A stretch of 64,000 nt of DNA from Acidimicrobiia bacterium (GCA_965215185.1 OZ244034.1:1056001-1120000), one strand, 5' to 3'. Shown: positions 37,552-54,342, counted from the stretch's first letter. Made by a program: numbers and translations. Notes: generated by a model from the sequence alone, not told the origin.

Positions 37552-38414
37552 TTAGGCGGCTTTTTCGAGGGGTCCGGCTCGAGCGTTGGGGAAGTGGTTG
37601 CCGTGCCAGCGGGTCATGTCTTTGCCGGTGCGTGCGTGGTGGGCGACTAGGGCAGTGTTGGTCTGGTACAGGCAGTAGGCGATCCAGTTGAGTTTGAGGC
37701 TGGTTTTGTCTTGGGTGCGGAGCCGGTCGTAGTCCAGTTGTCTTTTGTAGGTCGCGAAGTGCGATTCGATGTCTTGTCGGATTCCATACAAGGATTCGAA
37801 GAGGGGATCTGTTTCTGGTACGGGTCGCAGGGCGCGGGTTCAGCGGGTGTGGCGTTTGGCTTGGCGTTCTTGGGGGGTGCTGTTGTTTCGGATCCAGGTG
37901 ATGGCTCCGATCATGTGCTGTGGCACCACGGGATGGTCGGGTATCTCCCATTGGGTGTACACGATGTGCTTGCGGGTCCGTTTCCCGGGTTTTTTGATTT
38001 GGGTGCGGGTTCGTCGGAGGGGCTGGTAGTAGGGGTGTCCGGTTCCGTCGAAGACGAGGATGGTGGGGGTGCCGTTGAGCGCGACGATGTTTTCTTCGAA
38101 CTCGCCGTGTGCGGTTTTGAAGGTGCCGGGTCCCAGGTTGACTGCTGCGGTTTTGCCTTGGCTGGTGCGGGGTGTTTTGCTTATTGGCAGGATGCCTTGG
38201 TCCATGAGGCGGTCACAGTCGGCGGAGCGCATGGCCATGTCGTAGGTGACGGCGCGTATTCCTTGGGTGAGGTGGGGAAAGTCTTGGCGCATTTGGATGA
38301 TCTTTTGGGTGAACAGGTTGGCGTCGGACTGTCCGGGTTCGTCGAGGATTTCCGCGAAAAGAGGGATGCGTTCCTGCCGGTGGGGTCCGCGTACCACGGC
38401 GGCTACCACACAGT
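37552..38414 (-). pseudogene. Truncated second copy of the DDE transposase
   Basis: Near-identical to the E1 C-terminal half; nonsense TGA at about 37840; 5' half replaced at 38415. Confidence 0.9.
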
Positions 38415-38610
38415 TGTTGGCGATCATCGAAATTCCCCACTTCCTGGGGCTAATACCCGTTGTTGGGTAGGGCTCTCTCCAAGCTGCTGATTGAAGCAAA
38501 GTCGGCAGCTGTGGAGAGGAGCCCTGGCCCTTATGTTGGCATTGGAGGAATACGTGGAAGTTCATGCTTTGAGAAGGCGGGGATGGTCGATATCGGCTAT
38601 AGTGGCATAG
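38415..38610 (+). mobile_element. IS21-family left end and istA N-terminal fragment
   Basis: TGTTGGCGATCATCGAAATTCCCCAC end; MLALEEYVEVHALRRRGWSISAI from 38533. Confidence 0.7.
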
Positions 38611-38961
38611 CCGGAGGGTCGGTTTCGTAAGAAACCCCGACCCCCGGGTGTTCGTAGTAGGCGCGCAGATGGTTGGCGTCAGTGAAAAGCATCGGGCGCG
38701 GTCATGGCCGGTGAGGCTCAGCTGAAGATCCAGGGGCGGGCTTGTTTGTTGGAGAGGATGTCGTCGTTTGGTGATTTTGGACTCGATCTTGATGGCGAAC
38801 GGCGCGTCGGCTGCGGGGTTATAGAGTTCCTTGAAGTGGTCGTGGATCACATCAAGGTGCTGTCTCAGTTGAACCATCTGGGCGTCGCTCATGAGTAGCT
38901 CGCCGCGTCGCACTAGGTTGGAGAGCGAGAGTACCTCGTGCCGGTATATACTGATCGCTTT

Positions 38962-39156
38962 ATGAGACCTGATCCAAACATCGCCTTGATCCTCTCAATC
39001 TTTTTGGGTGGACTGGGAATTGATCGCATGTACGTTGGCCAAATCGGGCTGGGTGTGCTGAAGCTCCTCACCGCTGGGGGGCTGGGCATCTGGTGGCTGG
39101 TCGATTTGTTCCTGATCCGCGGGATAGCCCGGAAAGCCCAGCAAGAAGGCACTTAG
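38962..39156 (+). CDS. TM2-domain small membrane protein (copy 1)
   Basis: ALILSIFLGGLGIDRMYVGQIGLGVLKLLTAGGLGIWWLVD. Confidence 0.88.
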   Translation: MRPDPNIALILSIFLGGLGIDRMYVGQIGLGVLKLLTAGGLGIWWLVDLFLIRGIARKAQQEGT

Positions 39157-39840
39157 CACCCTGAGCGAGGGTTAAGGTGCAGACCGTCCTTCCCTCGGGG
39201 GACATGTCAAGTGCCCGACCTCACCTAAAGGCCGTGGCTGTCCGGTAACCGCTATTCCCAAAGGCGGATAGCGAGGGAACCGAGAAGGTTTGTGGGGGAC
39301 TTTTCTGATCAGTTGTGGGGTAGTTGCTAACTGTCTAGGTTCCGTCATCGGTTCCTTCGCCGGTGGAGCCTGGTATTCGGAGTCTGATTACGGTGCATTA
39401 GTCGCTGCCCAGGCAGCCGGTTCCATCAGTTTCGATAACGAACTCAGGGCCGAACTGTCCGGCGCAACGATCCCCGACCGCAAGTGGATGAATCTCAAAA
39501 CGGGACCGGTAGCGGTTTCGGAATTGGCCAGAAGTGGTTTCAGAATTTGCTGAAAGTGGTTTCACCGGCCTGTTCGCGCGATGCTGTGACCTGGGGCGTT
39601 GTGGTTTCGCGCCAGCGCCGACCCAACAGGGCCTCTCACACGATCACAGAATACGTGTCCGCCAAACCGGGGGAACTCCATTACCACTCCACCCTTTCAA
39701 ATAGGCGGTTCAACCGCAAGCTCCTTCTTTGCAGCCCAACCCTACGGTAGTTGATCCTTTCGGGGTGGTTCCGGTGCGTTGGTGGTGTGATGTGAGTGCG
39801 GTGGTCAATTACTGAGGTTCCCCTAAGTCTCTACCAAACC

Positions 39841-39971
39841 CACTCATACTGATAGGGGTCCCTTGGCCGGGGCGGGTCTGACCCATACCAAACCTGGCTT
39901 TTGCCTTTGCCCGATCTGTCGGCCTGTTTCCGGCTGAGGGATTGTTCACCGACCCGTGGGCGGATGTGACC
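39841..39971 (+). ncRNA. IS110 left end A, truncated bridge-RNA-like leader (target-binding loop only)
   Basis: Inverted homologue of 42800-42933; cut at 39972 by an IS3-type IR. Confidence 0.65.
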
Positions 39972-40025
39972 TGAACCGTGCCGATGCTCCTAGGATGCTC
40001 CTATTTTTGTCAAATCGAGAGCATC

Positions 40026-41252
40026 CTAGATATTCGCAGGGTTTTGTTGGGTGAGCCATTGTTGGTATTGGGTGGCGAGGTGGTGGTTGTGGTATAGGCC
40101 TCGTTCGAGTTGGGAGATGCGGTTGGGGTGGGTTTGGAGGGCGGTGGCGGCGTGGGTGAGGGTGGTCTGTGTGTGGTGGCGTTGGGTGCGTAGGAGGGCG
40201 CCGTTGGGTGTTGGTGGTGGGTTGGTGAGCAGGTGGTAGATCTCTCGGGCGATGTGGCGTTTTAGGCAGCGGATGATCTCCCGGCGGGTTTTGCTCTCGG
40301 TTTGGCGGCGGTGGGTGTATTCGATGGTGGGTTGATGGCAGCGCATCCGGGTGGTGGCGATACGCCATAAGGCGTTGTTGGCTTGGCGGTCGCCGCCTCT
40401 GTTGAGCCGGTGGCGTATGGTCTGCCCGGAGGAGGCCTGGACGGGACTGGCGCCGCATAATGCTGCGAAAGACGCTTCGGTGGTCAGGCGTTTGGGGTTG
40501 TCTCCTGCTGTGACCAGCAAAGCGGCGGCCGTGTCAGGACCGACACCCGGGGCGGAGAGCAGCGCCGGGTTGGCTCGGGAACAAAGACGAGTGATCTCTT
40601 TGTCGAGTTCTTTGATCTCGGTGGTGAGCGCCTGGCAGCGGCGCGCCAGATAGCGCAGTGTTTTCTTGGCGACCGTGGTGGTGGTATCGGCTGTGCCGGG
40701 ACGAAACCCGGCACAGGCTCGGATCCGGGCTTTGGTCGACAGTCCCCGGAGTTGGTGTTTGACCTGCTCGGGAGCGGTGACCACTAGGGCGTGGAGTTGG
40801 TTGATGGCCTGGGTGCGGGCTTTGATTGCGGAACGGCGGACTACCCGCAACATCCTGATTCCCTCGACCAGTCCGTCGGCGGTTTTGGGTCGGGCGGTGG
40901 CTTCACCGTTGAGAGCGGCCCGCCCGGCGGCTTGGGCGTCGGTGGTGTCGGTTTTTCCCAGTCGGCGGCGCAGCTGACGGTTGGGACGGTTGACTTCTAC
41001 CACCTCGATACCGATCCCGGTGAGATAGCGGGTCAGGCCGGCGCCGTAGCTGCCGGTGCCTTCCACCCCAACCCGCACCACACGACCCTGGGATCTCAAC
41101 CAGCCGCCCAGTTCCTCAAAGCCGGTTGCATCGGCCGGGAACGGAGCGGTTCCCAGGACTCGACCGGCGGTGTCCACTGCCGCCGCGACATGACAATCGC
41201 GATGGGTGTCCACCCCGCCAAACACCTCGACCAGGCTCTCTTTTTGTGACAT
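40026..41252 (-). CDS. IS110 family recombinase with a C-terminal HTH extension
   Basis: GGVDTH, GVEGTGSYG, KTDTTDA (DEDD); SSG...RHRLNRGGDRQAN. Confidence 0.95.
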   Translation of the reverse strand: MSQKESLVEVFGGVDTHRDCHVAAAVDTAGRVLGTAPFPADATGFEELGGWLRSQGRVVRVGVEGTGSYGAGLTRYLTGIGIEVVEVNRPNRQLRRRLGKTDTTDAQAAGRAALNGEATARPKTADGLVEGIRMLRVVRRSAIKARTQAINQLHALVVTAPEQVKHQLRGLSTKARIRACAGFRPGTADTTTTVAKKTLRYLARRCQALTTEIKELDKEITRLCSRANPALLSAPGVGPDTAAALLVTAGDNPKRLTTEASFAALCGASPVQASSGQTIRHRLNRGGDRQANNALWRIATTRMRCHQPTIEYTHRRQTESKTRREIIRCLKRHIAREIYHLLTNPPPTPNGALLRTQRHHTQTTLTHAATALQTHPNRISQLERGLYHNHHLATQYQQWLTQQNPANI

Positions 41253-41484
41253 GAATGTCTTCTTCTTCCTTGGATAGACTCGCGGGTATCACCGGACCGG
41301 AAGCGGTGGACAGAACACTCATGATGGTGTGGAGAAGCAAGGCTCCTATAAGGTCACATCCGCTCCCGGGTCGGGGAGTGTCCCCAGGCCGAAAGCAGGC
41401 CGACAGATCATAGATAAGGCACAAACGGCCAGTTTGTCAAGGGGTCAGACCCGCCCCGACCAAGGGACCCCACCATTATGAGTG
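41253..41484 (-). ncRNA. IS110 C leader, putative bridge RNA
   Basis: Target-loop segments TTGACAAAC and TCTATG; donor-loop segments ATAGGAGC and ATGAGTG. Confidence 0.7.
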
Positions 41485-41488
41485 TTTG

Positions 41489-42703
41489 TCAAATCGAGTT
41501 TTGTGTGGTGATCCATTGTTGGTATCGGGTGGCGAGTTGATGGTTGTGGTATTGGCCTCGCTCGAGTTGTGATAGGCGTATTGGGTAGGTGTGGAGGGCC
41601 TCGGCGGCGTGAGCGAGGGTTGTTCGCGTGTTTTTGCGTAGACAGCGCAGATGGGCGCCGTCGGGTGTGTCCGGTGGGTTGGTGAGCAGCCTGTGGATCT
41701 CTCGGGCGATGTGACGTTTGAGGCAGCGGATGATCTCGCGACGGTTTTTGCCTTCTGTTTGTCTTTTTTGGACATAGGCGATGGTTGGCTGGTGGCGGCG
41801 CATGCGGGTGGTGGCGATCCGCCACAGGGCCTGGTTGGCCTGGCGGTTCCCGCCGCGGTTGAGACGGTGCCGGACGGTACGTCCCGAGGACGCTTGGACA
41901 GGGCTTACGCCGCACAGAGCAGCGAAAGAGGATTCTGAGTGCATGCGTTCGGGGTTGTCGCCTGCTGCGACCAATAACACCGCGGCGGTGTCGGCGCCGA
42001 TCCCGGGGGCGGCCAACAGTGCCGGGTTGACCTGGGCGCAGAGATGGTTGATCTGGGTGGTGAGTTCTCCGATCTCTGCGGTGAGGGTCTGGTATCGGCG
42101 GGCCAGGGAACGCAACGCCGCTTTGGCGTATCTGATGGTGGTGTCGGCTGTGCCTGGGCGGAAACCGGCGCAGGTCTTTACGCGGGCTTTGGGAGAAAGT
42201 CCTCCAAGTTGGTGTCTGACCTGGTCGGGAGCGGTAACAATCAGGGCGTGCAGCTGGTTGATGGCCTGGGTTCGGGCTTTGGTCGCCGAACGGCGGGCCA
42301 CCGTGAGCATCCGTATTGCTTCTACTGGACCGTTACCGCTTTTGGGCACTGCGGTGGCCTGTCCGCTGAGAACCGCCCGAGCCGCGGCTTGGGCATCGGC
42401 GGTGTCAGTCTTGCCCAACCGGCGGCGCAACTGACGGTTTGCACGGTTCACTTCCACCGCCTCCATGCCGATACTGGTGAGGTGGCGGGCCAGACCGGCG
42501 CCGTAGCTGCCGGTGCCCTCCACCCCGACTCGGACCACCCTGCCGTGGGACTGTAGCCAATCGCCCAGTTGCTCATAACCGGCCGTGTCGACCGCGAAAG
42601 GGGCTGTTCCCAGGACTCGACCGGTGCTGTCCACCACCGCTGCCACATGAACATCCCGATGGGTGTCCACCCCACCAAACACATCTACCTGACCTACTGA
42701 CAT
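41489..42703 (-). CDS. IS110 family recombinase with a C-terminal HTH extension
   Basis: Same motifs as 40026..41252; a diverged paralogue. Confidence 0.95.
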   Translation of the reverse strand: MSVGQVDVFGGVDTHRDVHVAAVVDSTGRVLGTAPFAVDTAGYEQLGDWLQSHGRVVRVGVEGTGSYGAGLARHLTSIGMEAVEVNRANRQLRRRLGKTDTADAQAAARAVLSGQATAVPKSGNGPVEAIRMLTVARRSATKARTQAINQLHALIVTAPDQVRHQLGGLSPKARVKTCAGFRPGTADTTIRYAKAALRSLARRYQTLTAEIGELTTQINHLCAQVNPALLAAPGIGADTAAVLLVAAGDNPERMHSESSFAALCGVSPVQASSGRTVRHRLNRGGNRQANQALWRIATTRMRRHQPTIAYVQKRQTEGKNRREIIRCLKRHIAREIHRLLTNPPDTPDGAHLRCLRKNTRTTLAHAAEALHTYPIRLSQLERGQYHNHQLATRYQQWITTQNSI

Positions 42704-42933
42704 GATTCCTCCTACTCGGAATATAATTCGGGCTGTTCACCAGACCCGCTGGCGGATGGACAACACACTCATGGTGGTGGAGAAGCAAGGCTCCTATCAG
42801 GTCACATCCGCCCACGGGTCGGTGAACAATCCCCCAGCCGGAAAACAGGTCGACAGATCGGCACCAAGGCACAAAACCAGGTTTCATAAGGGTCAGACCC
42901 GCCCCGGCCAAGGGACCCCTATCAGTATGAGTG
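42704..42933 (-). ncRNA. IS110 B leader, putative bridge RNA
   Basis: Target-loop segments TATGAAACC and GTGCCG; donor-loop segments ATAGGAGC and ATGAGTG. Confidence 0.72.
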
Positions 42934-43150
42934 GGTTTCATAGAGGGTTGGTTGTTTGTGTAATTGGGGGTTTGATCGGGTTGGTTTGATGGTAGTTGGT
43001 TTCGTGTTCGGCGGGGGTGGTGTAGGTGGTATCTGGGGTGATTCCGCGAGGGTGGCGAAGGTGGTGTGGTCAAGGTCTCGCCAGGGTCCCCGGTTGCGGA
43101 TCAGTTCAGTTTTGTATAGACCGATGGTGGTCTCTGCCAGGGCATTGTCA
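42934..43150 (-). mobile_element. IS3-family (IS6110-like) 3' remnant whose IR is split by IS110 B
   Basis: DNALAETTIGLYKTELIRNRGPW; other half of the IR at 39972-39982. Confidence 0.75.
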
Positions 43151-43529
43151 AAGCCTCTATGAGTTTTCTCAGGTCAACAACCACGAAATGGGTGTGCTGG
43201 TTGACAGGAGTCAGTCCAGGGACCTGTACATGCAGATCTACGACGAGGCGATGAGGATTGTACGCCTGAGCGACGAAATCCGGGTCAAGGTTGCCCGAGT
43301 ACCGAAAGCACCCGTCGAGGATCCCCGACCCGGTGAGGCTCCCACCTGTCCAAAGTGCAACGAGACCATGGTCGTTCGCACAGCCAGGAAAGGCGCCAAC
43401 AAGGGCGAAACCTTTTGGGGGTGCTCCACCTTCCCCAAGTGCTGGGGCATGAGGCCTCTTGAAACTGCCCAAGCTGCCCCAAAGACCCCTTCCCGACGTG
43501 GGTTCCGTTCCCGACGGAAACGTTCTTAG
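43151..43529 (+). pseudogene. C-terminal fragment: PLD-like nuclease tail plus topoisomerase C4 zinc ribbon
   Basis: LYEFSQVNNHEMGVL; CPKCNETMVVRTARKG...FWGCSTFPKC; 5' part lost at the IS3 remnant. Confidence 0.65.
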
Positions 43530-43596
43530 CGATCACCCTAAGTACTCGCTGGCTTAGTCCTTAGGGGGTCGGTCGGTTAGTGAGGCTGGACCAGAG

Positions 43597-44041
43597 CTAT
43601 AGGTTTGGTCCAGTCGTTTGGCCACGATCCTGCCCGAGTCCGGCCAGACAGTCGGCCATGTCGTTCAAGGCGTGTCCGGAATGGCTTTTCACCTTCTCCC
43701 AGCGGATGTCCCGTCCGTTGAGCAGCCCGGCGATGGTTTCGATCAGTTCTCTGTGCGCCACCGGTTTACCCCCGGATCTCCGCATGTTGCGCTCGCGCCA
43801 ACCGGGAAGCCATTTGGTGAACGTTTTGATGACATATCTGCTGTCCGCTTGGATCAACAGCGGCTGGTCCGGTGGGAGAGACACCTAGAGTCTCGAGGAG
43901 GGCGGTCAGTTCCATGGCTTGGTGCGTTGTGTTGGGGTCACTGCCCCATTGGTACCGGCCGTCTTCGGTGGCCCATCCCCAGCCACCGGCGCCGCCCCTA
44001 ATTTCGCCAGACCCGTCAGTAGCGACAGTCAATCTTCTCAT
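43597..44041 (-). pseudogene. Ribonuclease HI, frameshifted near 43885
   Basis: VATDGS...GGWGW...MELTA, then in another frame ADSRYV, WEKVKSHSGHALNDMAD. Confidence 0.85.
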
Positions 44042-44263
44042 TTTGTTCACTGGCCTGTAATCCTAAGAGGAATCGTTGCAGTTCCTGATCACCTTACCGG
44101 GAATGGTCGAAAGGACTTGGGCCGAGCGGCAACAGCCCACCTCCGCTCCATTCTGCACTCCAAGTAGAAGGACCGGTCGGACAACTCCGGGTGCTGGCCG
44201 CCCGTCCTCAAGGCCATCATGGCAGGTCTGCGGTTCGGCTGATGAGCCGGGTTTCTTGGGCGT

Positions 44264-45082
44264 TTAGTCGGCATCAGGGTTTTGGGTCCTACTAGTTAGG
44301 TGTTCCTGTATCTGTCCTAACGAAGCTTCGATGCGTTCTTGGCGCTGTTCAAGAGACCTCAGTCGGTTAACGAGGTCGGACTCTTGGTCTGATTCAACGA
44401 AGTATGCGGCTATGTTGGCGGTAATGAAGGACACCACCCCGATCCCGGCCAGCATCAATACCACCGCGGTTGCCCGGCCTCCCGTAGTGACCGGGGAGAA
44501 ATCTCCGTAACCGACGGTGGTGAGGGTCACCACCGTCCACCATAGGCCATCAACTAGCGAGTGTCCCTCGAATAAAGCGAACAGCCCCCCGGTTGCCAAC
44601 GCTATGAGAACGAAGGCGGCGGTTGCGTAGCCGAGTCCCCGCTTTCGGAGAACGCGACGCAGATGCGTCAAACCCCGGGCGGAAGCCGCCGCTAAACCCG
44701 CCAACCGGAGAAGGCGAAGAACCCGGACAAGGCGAGACAATCGCGCAAGCCGGGTGAGAGCGAACAGTTCGCCCAGCAGTGGAAAAGAGACAAGAATGAC
44801 CAGAAGGTCCAGCCAGGCCTTCCTGGCATAAGCAAGACGGTCGTCGGTCAGGAGAATCACCACCGCGAATTCCACAGTGAACGCTGCCCAGATAAGCCAA
44901 TTGACTATCTCGAAAACAGTCTCCCACCCACCGACGGCGATCTGTTCGCCTATTACTACCGGGAGAACCGCCAGCGCCGCAACCATCACCGGTATCTCGA
45001 ACTGTTGACGAACCTTCGCAGCCCGCGGGTTCAGCACATCGTCGATAGTCCGGTGATCCCTCACAAATCCCAAAGAGTACAC
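44264..45082 (-). CDS. Potassium channel / ion transporter (6TM)
   Basis: S4-like RLARLSRLVRVLRLLRL; TTVGYGD selectivity filter. Confidence 0.9.
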   Translation of the reverse strand: MYSLGFVRDHRTIDDVLNPRAAKVRQQFEIPVMVAALAVLPVVIGEQIAVGGWETVFEIVNWLIWAAFTVEFAVVILLTDDRLAYARKAWLDLLVILVSFPLLGELFALTRLARLSRLVRVLRLLRLAGLAAASARGLTHLRRVLRKRGLGYATAAFVLIALATGGLFALFEGHSLVDGLWWTVVTLTTVGYGDFSPVTTGGRATAVVLMLAGIGVVSFITANIAAYFVESDQESDLVNRLRSLEQRQERIEASLGQIQEHLTSRTQNPDAD

Positions 45083-52015: not shown

Positions 52016-52906
52016 TCGGCCCGGTCCACGATCAAACCGGGTGTCCACCGGCAATACCCGAGTCCACGGTTGGGTGTCCACGGTTCGGTTCTTGTGATCA
52101 TTTTCGCTCCGGTATGCGCCCGCTGGTCACGGTTTGAACGTGACCCATACACCTAAACCTTGTTTCCCGGTGTTGATCCCCGGATGTTGCGGGCCTGTAG
52201 AGGCGGTGACTAGATGGTTGGAGACCCGAGGCGTATTTGATGGGAGCCTACCCGCATCCCCATAAAACCTTCGCTTGTTACGCCCCTGTCCGCTATTCGA
52301 CCGGGATCCAAGACATTGGTCTACGCTTAGGTACCCACTGTGAAAAACGACATGGCCACCACCAGCACTGATGATCTTTGGCGGCTGGCATGGTCCGCCG
52401 CTCCCGCTGGTGCCTTAACGACTTCGCCGTTCAGTGCTTCCGACTTGATCTGGTCAAGGAGCGACTTACCCAACGTGGTCTCCAGTGGGTAGGCAATCAC
52501 CTAGCGAAACCGCGTTAACGGACACAACCATCGATGCATTGGCAGGACGAGCGGCCCCAGTGGAATGCGACCCAGCCGAACCCGCTATGTAGGACATCCT
52601 TCAATCTTAAGAGGACGACCGCTGCAAGGGAGGTAACTACAAGAGCGGCTTGGAGGTGCGTGACCGAGAATTCCACGGGGCGCAACTTTGAGGACATGCG
52701 GCAGCCGTTTCAGGAATAGCCAAAACTGGTTTCGGAATTGGCTGAAAGTGATTTCAGCGTCCTGTTTGCGGGATGCTGTGACCTGGGGTGTTTTGGTTTC
52801 GCGCCAGCGCCCAAGGGCGGGGTTGGCGCGAAACTGTTGGGGTTTCTGTGCTTATGGTAGTTGGGGCGGAGAGTGGGGTGAACCGCGCCGGGTTTGGTAG
52901 AGGGTT

Positions 52907-54177
52907 TGGTGGTACCCGACTTTGGTGGAGTCGGGTTATTTGAATTGGTGGTGTGACTGACCCGGAAGGAGTCTTCATGCCTTATCGATATCCACCCGAG
53001 TTCCGTCGCAGGGTGCTGGATCTGCTGGCAGTTGGCAGGTCGGTAGCGTCGTTGTCAGCGGATCTTGGGGTGTCTGATCAGACGATCTACAACTGGCGGC
53101 GCCAAGACCGAATCGACCGCGGTCTACAACCGGGTGCCACTTCGGAGGAACAGGCCGAACTGTGGGCCGCTCGCTGTCGGATCGTCGAGCTGGAAACCGA
53201 ACTGGCCGTGACCAAGCGGGCTATTGAACTGCTGGGAGACCAGGTGGTGCACCTCAAAGACGCTACCAGGCGATCCGGACCATGAGAACCGAAGGGCTTC
53301 CCAGGTGGCGTGTCGAGTGCTCGAGGTGTCACAGTCCGGGTTCTACGCCAGGGTGGTCCCGGCCGCCGTCAGCCCGCTTGCATCCGCCACGCCTGGTTGA
53401 CCGACGTCATCTGTCACATCCATGAACAGTCACGCGGCACCTATGGGGCGCGGCGGGTGCACGCCGAACTGCGGTTGGGTCATGGAATAACCGTCGGACA
53501 CAACGCAGTAGCGATGCTGATGCGCAGAGCCGGTCTAGCTGGTCTTAGTAGGTGACCGAAGTCCCAGACGGCGGACCCGCCCGGTGGACACGCCCGGTGG
53601 ACCTGGTCGACCGTAACTTCGCCCGTTTCGAACCGGACCAACTGTGGGTGACCGATATCACAGAGCATCCCACCCGGCAAGCGCAAGGTGTACTGCGCGG
53701 TGGTGCTGGACGTGTACGGGCCGCCGGGTCGTCGGCTGGTCGATCGACAACACGGCCACCTCCGGACTGGTCACCTCCGCGTTAGGTATGGCAATCGGGA
53801 ACCGCCAACCCGACCCCGGCACGGTCATACATTCGGACCAGGGCACCCAATTCACCTCCTGGGCGTTCACCCAACGGGCCCTCGAATCCGGTCTGGTTCC
53901 GTCCATGGGAACCGTCGGGGACTGTTTCGATAACGCCACCATGGAATCGTTTTGGGCTCGTATGCAGGTCGAGCTGTTGGACCGCAGGAGGTGGAGGACC
54001 CGTATCGAACTCGCCAACGCTATCTTCGAGTACCTAGAGATCTTCCACAACCGCCACCGGCGCCACACCGCACTGGAAATGCGCACCCCCATCGAATACG
54101 AAAGAAACCACAACAACAACCTAACCATCGCACCACTGATCCAAGTGAGCTGACTCCACAAAACCGGGGGACCATCA
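52907..54177 (+). mobile_element. IS3 family element (1271 bp, frameshifted orfA/orfB) enclosed by a second IS3-type IR pair (52879-52906, 54178-54201)
   Basis: IRs TGGTGGTACCCGACTTTGGTGGAGTC and GACTCCACAAAACCGGGGGACCATCA; orfA MPYRYPPEFRR; WVTDIT, HSDQG and DNATMES. Confidence 0.9.
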
Positions 54178-54342
54178 CTCTATGAATCCCGGTACGGTTC
54201 AGGGGGTTGGTTGTGGCGCGGGTGGGGTTTATGTGAGGTTTTGAGGGGCTGGATCTAGGGGTTTTGGAGTGTGGGCCGCGGTGATCCAGGGCTTTTGGGT
54301 GTTTGGCCCGCGGTGATCTGGGGCGGGGTGGTTTTGGGGTGT

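Follow-up and report, generated by a model that had tools for sequence, protein, structure and literature searches.

The locus considered here raises the question of whether the non-coding leaders of IS110-type elements carry the information that decides where each element inserts. It lies within a window of 64,000 nt from the genome of an Acidimicrobiia bacterium (GCA_965215185.1, OZ244034.1:1056001-1120000), in which the elements A, B and C are nested insertion sequences of IS110 type. The first-pass annotation described three IS110 leaders with different guide segments, each matching its own insertion site, and explained them by the target-loop/donor-loop logic of IS110 bridge RNAs. The strings it quoted are all in place, and all three leaders are present, although only B and C are whole and A is a relic. 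We consider it highly probable (roughly 0.88) that a two-loop bridge RNA, the guides of which would specify the insertion site, is encoded by the leader of about 230 nt that precedes each DEDD/Ser recombinase gene.

The features of the locus are listed in the table. In element A, the terminus of an IS3-like element (a type with 80-nt repeats and an rve ORF) truncates the leader at ~39971-39974, within the donor module's 5' stem and before the donor-guide segment, and the recombinase gene is absent downstream. In alignments, the similarity of A to B and C stops at ..GATGTGACC(TGA). The IS3-like copy that supplies 39972..39983 had inserted into A's leader; these 12 nt are identical to part of an unoccupied repeat end, TATGAAACC-C-GGCACGGTTCA, at positions 1954-1976 of L050. 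On the other side of B, 62 nt of the inner part of the IS3-like host are 87% identical to a paralogous repeat end (genome positions 911681-911742). An 83-aa fragment of this host has a weak BLASTP match (E 0.003) to the C-terminal region of an rve transposase (FDNA..E), and a Pfam search of the same fragment, which adjoins B, gave no match. Reconstructed across C, the right end of B extends 15 nt 3' of the stop codon. The left target of C overlaps both this stop codon (TGA, 41489-41491) and B's TTGACA box. The nesting records the sequence of insertions: A inserted first, into an IS3-like repeat, a second IS3-like copy then entered A's leader, B entered the repeat of this second copy, and C finally entered the right end of B.

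Features of the nested elements, in order of position in the window
Feature	Position	Strand	Remark
Left target of A: TACCAAACC + core C (39841)	39832..39841	+	in IS3-like terminal inverted repeat remnant (..AAGTCTCTACCAAACC)
Element A, leader relic: 5' hairpin and entire target-binding loop	39842..~39971	+	alignment to B and C
A left guide	39886-39894	+	within leader relic
A right guide TTGCCCG	39907-39913	+	within leader relic
IS3-like terminal inverted repeat, outermost 12 nt (minus strand C-GGCACGGTTCA)	39972..39983	-	right target of B, core C 39983
B right end, last 10 nt (CTAGGAGCAT)	39984..39993	-	split from rest of B by C insertion
Core C for C's right junction	39994	-	adjoins B's last 10 nt
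Element C, 1489 bp, complete	39995..41483	-	nested in B
C right end, 31 nt after stop	39995-40025	-	contains TTGACA
C recombinase ORF, 408 aa	40026-41252	-	intact
C leader, 231 nt	41253-41483	-	donor guides ATAGGAGC and ATGAGTG
C right guide ATCTATG	41409-41415	-	
C left guide	41432-41440	-	
Left target of C: TTGACAAA + core C (41484)	41484..41492	-	inside B's right end
Element B, main part	41485..42932	-	complete element: 39984-39993 + 41485-42932
B recombinase ORF, 404 aa	41489-42703	-	intact
B leader, 229 nt	42704-42932	-	
B right donor guide ATGAGTG	42766-42772	-	
B left donor guide ATAGGAGC	42788-42795	-	
B right guide GGTGCCG	42859-42865	-	
B left guide	42880-42888	-	
Core C (42933) + left target of B TATGAAACC (42934-42942)	42933..42942	-	in IS3-like inverted repeat
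IS3-like element hosting B, inner part	42943..43160	-	truncated near 43160; paralogue match

The recombinases place these elements in the IS110 group of the IS110 family. Both intact proteins combine a DEDD RuvC-like domain (PF01548; E 1.9e-26 in B, 4e-23 in C) with a Tnp_20 domain (PF02371; E 6.4e-20 and 3.1e-20, respectively). In a comparison with the IS621 transposase (8wt6_A, E 1.7e-14), of which the protein is a homologue, the GxD, E, DxxD and SG positions line up; they include residues taken as catalytic in IS621, of which S241 is named in publications on that enzyme. The elements have a long non-coding left end, a short right end and no terminal inverted repeats, and they begin with ACTCAT.. 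and end with ..GGAGCAT.

Folding and aligning the leaders had been proposed as a check, and an alignment of 20 leaders upholds the common scaffold described in the first-pass annotation. These leaders fold as two stem/internal-loop modules with 41 consensus pairs, in which 95.2% of the 820 cells are paired and 10 pairs have changed on both sides, as expected of compensatory changes. Such values were reached by 0-1 of 500 shuffles, and slid controls pair at 38-57%. The helices occupy alignment columns 20-44/85-108, 58-60/69-71 and 129-142/188-200, and the predicted inner helix of the donor module has compensatory support at none of its six pairs. For the leader of B alone the fold has a z of -4.8, and none of 200 shuffles folds equally well. 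Given the many G-U pairs, the fold is specific to the sense-strand RNA. An Rfam scan of positions 38000-45000, with E up to 1, returned no matches.

Within the first module, the 9-nt segment that follows GGTCTGACCC-N equals the left flank on the top strand, and the 6-7 nt that precede GATCTGTCG are the reverse complement of the right flank. In A the left guide TACCAAACC is identical to its flank, as are TATGAAACC in B and TTGACAAAC in C, the latter two on the minus strand. GTGCCG, within the right guide of B, is the reverse complement of B's right flank CGGCAC (39978-39983). The second segment of C had been called imperfect, and ATCTATG predicts CATAGAT where the actual right flank is CCTAGGA (3/7 mismatches); the right guide of element I likewise has 3/7 mismatches to its right flank. 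The right guide of A predicts C-GGGCAA, whereas the repeat end as at A's site reads ..GTCTCTACCAAACC-C-GGCGCG in uninterrupted IS3-like copies; A's own right flank is lost.

Covariation between guide and target, which the first-pass annotation wished to see sought in a larger set of homologues, was found rather than its absence. We compared 24 distinct element/flank pairs with 21 guides, drawn from this genome and other Acidimicrobiia genomes. The left guide has at most one mismatch to its own flank in 20 of these pairs (12 with none, eight with one), and two, three and six mismatches occur in one, one and two pairs, respectively. The mean is 1.04 mismatches for own flanks against 4.5 for non-cognate ones, and none of 20,000 guide permutations reaches the observed mean. 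The right guides of 19 elements behave in the same manner, with a mean of 1.68 mismatches to their right flanks against 4.23 for non-cognate flanks (0/20,000 permutations). A chance origin of the match between guide and flank is excluded. Two of the 24, L002 and L034, sit in sites that fit neither guide, with 6/9 mismatches on the left and 4-5/6 on the right. The genome of L002 holds an element with a fitting guide, ACTGAAATC, although this element is a member of a more distant family whose left end differs (GCTCAT), and no guide fitting the site of L034 with three or fewer mismatches was found in the genome of L034.

The second loop matches the element's own ends: ATAGGAGC corresponds to the right end ATAGGAGCAT, and TGAGTG to CACTCA at the left end, where the elements read (C)ACTCAT. 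This loop had been described as invariant, which is true of ATAGGAGC and TGAGTG in all 20 leaders and not of the A that precedes TGAGTG, which varies. Unlike in IS621 and IS622, the right donor guide pairs contiguously with CACTCA, and the left donor guide matches right-end positions -10 to -3 and stops 2 nt before the core, not reaching the two bases that adjoin it. The pairing geometry is not simply that of IS621. In a second IS110 family, the right end is ATAGAAGCAT and the donor loop CAGAAGC, so that ends and loop covary, as seen in one copy only.

Judging from the IS621 mechanism and the anatomy seen here, each element would excise as a circle that joins its right end to its left end. The circle junction of C is predicted to read ..ATAGGAGCAT-C-ACTCATA.., and that of B with C inside it ..CTAGGAGCAT-C-ACTCATAC... 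TTGACA in the right end and CATAAT (in C) or CATACT (in B) in the left end would be separated by a 17-nt spacer over the predicted junction, forming a candidate promoter for the bridge RNA and the recombinase. In the right target guide, the AU behind the core-pairing G can pair with the AT that precedes the core in the donor and is a candidate handshake guide after strand exchange.

Neither a circle junction nor a usable transcript end was seen in the short assembled contigs of the public metagenome runs X1, X5, X6 and X19, which hold many relatives. A contig from X5 that joins 39992 to 41483, with 21 nt on the shorter side, resembles a precise empty site for C; its joint is that of a sibling right-end variant (TTGACAAAC-ATAGGAGCAT), not B's own end, and it was not counted. 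A contig from the X19 RNA library (depth 2.9) spans 41316-41496, across the left boundary of C, and may be due to read-through, DNA carry-over or a relative; it was given no weight.

The shared core had been read as a single C rather than the CT of IS621, and unoccupied paralogous sites of three target types bear this out. The unoccupied sites for B, for H and J, and for E and M have one C each, and filled copies have a C at both junctions. Both bases flanking this C differ from the donor CAT-C-ACT in the sites for B and H/J, and only the base before it differs in E's own site. The short shared core is one C, with no further target duplication and without the CT specific to IS621. The left guide occurs in two registers relative to this core. 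Of 27 elements, 14, including C, have a match that extends to the C before ACTCAT, and 11, including A and B, one that stops a base short of it; two elements fit neither register. The one-base offset of C's first segment relative to A and B that was pointed out in the first-pass annotation is genuine and recurs. No scaffold correlate of the two registers was found among the linker and stem lengths of the 20-leader alignment.

The single-C core and the registers could instead be artefacts of how the boundaries were drawn, if the crossover were truly two nucleotides as in IS621 (donor TC, target NC). IS621 and IS622 use a dinucleotide core (PMC11208158; 10.1101/2025.05.14.653916), and a wider overlap could absorb the matches that end one base before the C. 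We nevertheless regard this as improbable. A mismatched two-nucleotide overlap would leave a heteroduplex, and half of the progeny would then differ by one base, yet all of the right ends listed (~30) have CAT at their terminus, followed by C, and the left flanks retain the guide-specified base beside the C, perfectly matching the guide in 12 of 24 pairs. Moreover, the unoccupied sites have only the C in common with the donor, and the core-pairing G of the right guide is invariably followed by A, which faces T in none of the targets seen.

The sites themselves lie in other mobile elements. The IS3-like element has two different terminal inverted repeats, one fitted by the guides of A and the other by those of B. 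The guides of C, D and K match sibling IS110 copies at their right end, those of E and M a conserved Tnp_20 motif in the recombinase gene of the second IS110 family, and those of H and J an ISL3 transposase in its stop-codon region. Divergence among the lineages of this genome is confined to the target loop, and the sites for which they are programmed are in other mobile DNA. Purifying selection removes harmful insertions, and enrichment in transposons might accordingly reflect survival alone, insertions elsewhere having been lost; element F, which sits within an IS3-like body with 3/9 guide mismatches, looks like such a tolerated off-target insertion. Survival without programmed targeting is very improbable, however, because the guides of A, B, C, E, M, H, J and K spell transposon sequences on both sides with 0-1 mismatches. 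Selection may well account for the persistence of such guides, but the elements do sit at their programmed sites.

Even less credible is the idea that the leader is a mere 5' untranslated regulator whose flank matches arose by DNA-level events such as gene conversion or target capture: the two elements that mismatch their sites would suit it, but the matching segments are found 45 and 70 nt into the element, on the opposing strands of a single internal loop in a conserved fold that exists only as sense-strand RNA, one is in the flank's sense and the other its reverse complement, and the same layout was demonstrated biochemically and structurally for the homologous IS621 (PMC11208160; PMC11208158).

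Bridge-RNA logic, both target loop and donor loop, is supported, in that it is consistent with every sequence-level test run; recombinase homology, fold, guides, donor loop and unoccupied sites agree with what the first-pass annotation proposed. It is possible, although we find it doubtful, that these elements form a guild whose guides diversified specifically to home into other transposons, such that RNA-guided insertion would amount to interference between transposons. The insertion of C shifts the TTGACA box of B away from B's end, and B would then be unable to form its junction promoter. The guides of C, D and K would then be tuned to the TTGACA/stop-codon region of sibling right ends, and those of the second IS110 family to the donor-guide region of the first family's leader. 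The one-nucleotide core would tolerate a one-base slide of the left guide, with an invariant U wobbling on the core G. As the donor ends are common to the siblings, the RNA of one might also direct the circle of another, and this would account for L002 and L034 being in a sister's type of site. Many copies of the elements in the genome are frameshifted or fragmentary, and the elements may not be active today.

Like IS621 and IS622, with which they share sequence homology, the elements described here combine DEDD RuvC-like and Tnp_20 Ser domains with a long left end that would encode a two-module RNA. Also held in common are a left target guide of 9 nt with a U and a small stem-loop after it, a right target guide ending in a core-pairing base and then two donor-complementary bases (a candidate handshake guide), and a donor loop that matches the right-left end junction; a candidate -35 box in the right end and a candidate -10 box in the left correspond to those of IS621 and IS622. 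They differ from IS621 and IS622 in the single crossover C, the two left-guide registers, the lack of an Rfam match, the Acidimicrobiia host and their targets, which are other transposons rather than REP elements. IS1111-group elements reportedly target another transposon's terminal inverted repeat and do so in a single orientation, a habit resembling that of the elements here. That group has its guide RNA in a long right end and subterminal inverted repeats of 7-17 bp, a layout not found here: the structured guide region is in the left end, upstream of the gene, the right end has 15-31 nt, and the host element is IS3-like. ISPpu9 and ISPpu10, also of the IS110 family, are described as multi-copy elements that insert site-specifically into repeated non-essential DNA, in their case REP elements and here transposon ends or transposase genes. 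In ISEc21 (PMC11187229), the non-coding region 5' of the recombinase gene likewise sets the target and there is no target duplication; the host and targets differ.

A, B and C are a clean natural instance of a known mechanism, not a new system. The novelty claimed in the first-pass annotation was overstated, because natural covariation of guide and target over thousands of IS110s (Durrant 2024, PMC11208160) and 'natural re-programming' among relatives (the ISEc21 seekRNA paper, Siddiquee 2024, PMC11187229) were published in 2024. No paper that describes a one-nucleotide core, or IS110 elements nested within other insertion sequences, came up in literature searches on the two subjects, and the supplementary tables of Durrant 2024 and Siddiquee 2024 may hold cases of both.

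From the perspective of the family, one genome offers a compact natural series in which some dozen related leaders have nine or more different guides and several have unoccupied paralogous sites; it displays the bridge-RNA code without any experiment. To the IS621 model the series adds three testable variations, namely a single-C core, two registers of the left guide, and guides aimed at transposons, including siblings. A recombinase that needs one fixed crossover base would broaden the choice of target sites for engineering. The nested elements also suggest a way for RNA-guided transposons to persist, namely by residing in other transposons, which they may disable.

Two complete IS110-family elements, B and C, lie on the reverse strand of the region, and the stump of a third, A, on the forward strand. 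The elements are members of the IS110 group, and the B protein aligns with the IS621 transposase 8wt6_A (E 1.7e-14), including the GxD, E, DxxD and SG positions. The leaders of B and C are non-coding, 229-231 nt long, lie 5' of the gene and begin with (C)ACTCATA. Judged from these sequences, the elements are predicted to work like IS621. Most B-family recombinase genes in the genome are frameshifted or fragmentary; the only uninterrupted full-length matches are B, C, the further element J and an element at 2342472-2343680.

Coordinates of the elements, targets and remnants discussed in the text
Feature	Position	Strand	Description
A	window 39842 to ~39971	+	first ~130 nt of the leader only; no gene
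IS3-like repeat tip	window 39972-39983		12 nt between the A stump and the right end of B
C recombinase ORF	window 40026-41252	-	408 aa; DEDD_Tnp_IS110 + Transposase_20
B recombinase ORF	window 41489-42703	-	404 aa; DEDD_Tnp_IS110 + Transposase_20
Zinc-ribbon ORF	window 43026-43529	+	167 aa; topoisomerase-type C4 zinc ribbon (PF01396, E 3.2e-10)
IS3-like copy	window 52878-54201		full copy, 93.8% identical to the reference copy; both repeat ends unoccupied
Repeat end in that copy	window near 52899		TACCAAACC-C-GGCGCG; perfect match to the left guide of A
Repeat end in that copy	window near 54181		TATGAATCC-C-GGTACGG; one mismatch to the left guide of B
IS3-like reference copy	L050 656-1976		1321 bp; rve ORF
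Second-family IS110 copy	L040 4247-5653 (genome 2343746-2345152)		inserted in the leader of L, opposite orientation
E and M insertions	L041 1942-2199 and L049 (genome 979956-980798; 374094-374933)		same codon in two gene copies
Unoccupied H/J-type sites	L053 2242-2251, L052 near 2898 (genome 2519250, 2507897)		ISL3-family transposase stop codons
Other copy of the target of L	L052 near 1524 (genome 2506523)		sole other copy; G at core position; unoccupied
Stacked right-end remnants	genome 978221-978263, 370962-371004, 1000620-1000681		head-to-tail pairs
Third-family leaders	genome 255805 (N) and L051		more distant family

The first-pass annotation had proposed that the guides in these leaders match the insertion site of their own element, and each string it quoted was recovered in place. 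In A, B and C the 9 nt after GGTCTGACCC-N are identical to the 9 nt left of the element, and in B the right flank is matched in reverse complement by the 6 nt preceding GATCTGTCG. The second segment of C, which had been called imperfect, has three mismatches in 7 to the flank actually present on the right. Covariation among homologues, whose absence had been named as refuting the proposal, is present on both sides of the element. A profile built from the B and C leaders matched 13 places in the 3.12-Mb genome that contains the window. Species genomes scanned with a protein anchor yielded 39 loci, mostly from Acidimicrobiia MAGs, with 24 matches to the scaffold motif. The scanned and own-genome loci together gave 28 elements, and the left flank was readable in 27.

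Across 24 distinct left guide/flank pairs (21 different guides), 12 cognate pairs had no mismatch, eight had one, one had two, one had three and two had six, a mean of 1.04 against 4.5 for non-cognate pairs. When guides were shuffled among elements 20,000 times, the observed mean was never reached. The right side was scored in 19 elements, those with their own right end inside the fetched locus, a set that retains the near-duplicates H and J, and L010 and L024. It omits A, F, K, L and M (without a right end), L003 (whose flank is interrupted where the contig ends), L006b and L008 (right end beyond the locus) and L006a (twin of L001). Over six positions past the core, two elements had no mismatch, nine had one, four had two, two had three, one had four and one had five. 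The mean was 1.68, compared with 4.23 for non-cognate pairs, and 0 of 20,000 permutations were as good. The sites of L002 and L034, from other Acidimicrobiia genomes, match the guides of a sister lineage and neither of their own; L002 is ~80% identical to E over its length, yet it occupies an H/J-type site. Possibly the RNA of a co-resident element served as guide, or siblings exchanged target loops.

The leader RNA is predicted to fold into two modules. An alignment of 20 full leaders (235 columns) gave a first module in which a long stem (columns 20-44 with 85-108) closes an internal loop containing the left guide, a 3-bp inner hairpin and the right guide. In the second (stem 129-142 with 188-200), the loop carries ATAGGAGC on its 5' side and TGAGTG on its 3' side. 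This layout is that of the IS621 bridge RNA, described in PMC11208158 as stem, left guide, stem-loop and right guide, two times. Standard pairs fill 95.2% of 820 cells, both sides change in 10 of 41 pairs, and 0-1 of 500 shuffles do as well; with the partners shifted by 1-3 columns, pairing falls to 38-57%. The B leader alone folds at -99.4 kcal/mol (z -4.8). Because many pairs are G-U, the fold is confined to the sense strand, that of the recombinase gene. A predicted helix within the donor loop showed no compensatory changes in the 20-leader alignment, and no Rfam family matches the leader region.

The core was read from unoccupied paralogous copies of three target types in the same genome. 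The B site is TATGAAACC-C-GGCACGGTTCA when unoccupied, and ..AAACC-C-ACTCAT on the left and ..GCAT-C-GGCAC on the right when filled. The H/J site (ACTGAAATC-C-GATGAGCC) has a C at each junction when filled, and the E/M site, AACTCAAC-C-G(C/A)GCCC in its paralogues, has C on the left and C-AAGCCA on the right beside E. The core thus reads as one C, in the sense of a shared base, the cut stagger not being legible from sequence. At B and H/J the target bases on both sides of this C are unlike those of the donor, CAT-C-ACT; at the site of E only the base before it differs, since the base after it is A in donor and target alike. An overlap that was wider and contained mismatches should show up as variation in the element ends or in the final base of the left flank. 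Neither kind of variation was found, which counts against a wider overlap.

Donor right ends found in the genome read ..TTTGACAA..ATAGGAGCAT, then C, and left ends C, then ACTCATA. One invariant string of loop 2 is identical to the right-end ATAGGAGC, and the other is the reverse complement of CACTCA in the left end. Because the ends are invariant, donor-side covariation cannot be counted within the B family. In a copy of a second IS110 family, whose protein is about 45% identical to that of B and whose ends are ATAGAAGCAT on the right and TGTGAGTAT on the left, loop 2 is ..CAGAAGC.. and ..ACTCA(TC)ACAG.., shifting in step with its own ends in this one copy. A reconstructed circle junction places the right-end TTGACA 17 nt upstream of the left-end CATAAT (C) or CATACT (B), and integrated copies have no upstream -35 box of the TTGACA kind. 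Public runs, available as assembled contigs, contained neither a circle junction nor transcript ends. The third leader family has left end GCTCATAATGG and keeps the GGTCTGACCC-N-guide-TGG scaffold, with A(A/C)TTGAAATC-like guides.

Left guides occur in two registers. In one, found in 14 of 27 elements, the 9-nt match runs up to and includes the core C, as in IS621, whose left guide covers the core; in the other, found in 11, A and B among them, it stops one base shorter. In the short register, the invariant U after the guide faces the core G, with which it may form a wobble pair; the 20-leader alignment revealed no scaffold correlate of register. In all leaders AU follows the core-pairing G of the right guide, complementary to the AT preceding the donor core and not to the targets seen. 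The base after TGAGTG complements the last left-target base in most elements (exceptions B and L001): targets ending AA-C go with TT (C, L012, L014) and those ending C-C with G. These bases are arranged as PMC11208158 describes for IS621 handshake guides, and we infer that they may play that role.

Of the 12 B-family leaders in this genome, at least 10 are located within other mobile DNA. The DNA adjoining B is a terminal inverted repeat of an IS3-like element, which is present in the genome in at least six near-full copies, including one in the window; the 80-nt repeats of the reference copy are 78% complementary. One repeat, TACCAAACC-C-GGCGCG, carries the left guide of A, and the other, TATGAAACC-C-GGCACGG, agrees with both guides of B. 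The 12 nt between A and B form the tip of one of these repeats, which places the entry of an IS3-like copy into the A leader before the entry of B into that copy. The zinc-ribbon ORF starts within the truncated IS3-like remnant, where the junction near 43160 is the trace of another rearrangement. F, whose guide matches poorly, is in the body of an IS3-like element, and L lies within a two-copy repeat.

Siblings are also targets. C sits in the right end of B; its left target overlaps the B stop codon and TTGACA box, and the last 10 nt of B come after the right end of C. D and K, with the same guide as C or a similar one, are likewise in sibling right ends. The stacked remnants read ..ATAGAAGCAT-C-(A/G)A-TTTGACAA..ATAGGAGCAT and look like what is left of repeated insertion at another position in sibling right ends, namely the C of CTCGATTTGACA. 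E and M share one point in the recombinase gene of the second IS110 family, directly after the conserved ..RLNRRGDRQLN of the Tnp_20 domain. H and J occupy the region around the stop codon in an ISL3 transposase gene, and the unoccupied sites of their type are at the stop codon of ISL3-family transposase genes (443-aa ORF, DDE_Tnp_ISL3 E 1e-57). The left guide of the second-family copy in the leader of L, AGACCACTC, equals its own flank and is the reverse complement of the right-donor-guide region of L; the guide of one family thus targets the guide-RNA gene of the other.

Guide/target covariation over 5,511 natural IS110 pairs (PMC11208160) and natural re-programming among relatives (PMC11187229) are already published, and the central idea is therefore not new. 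In the literature available to us, the supplementary tables of the 2024 papers aside, we found no single-C core, two registers or transposon aiming. These elements may be new in having a core of one C, left guides in two registers and guides aimed systematically at other transposons, their own siblings included.
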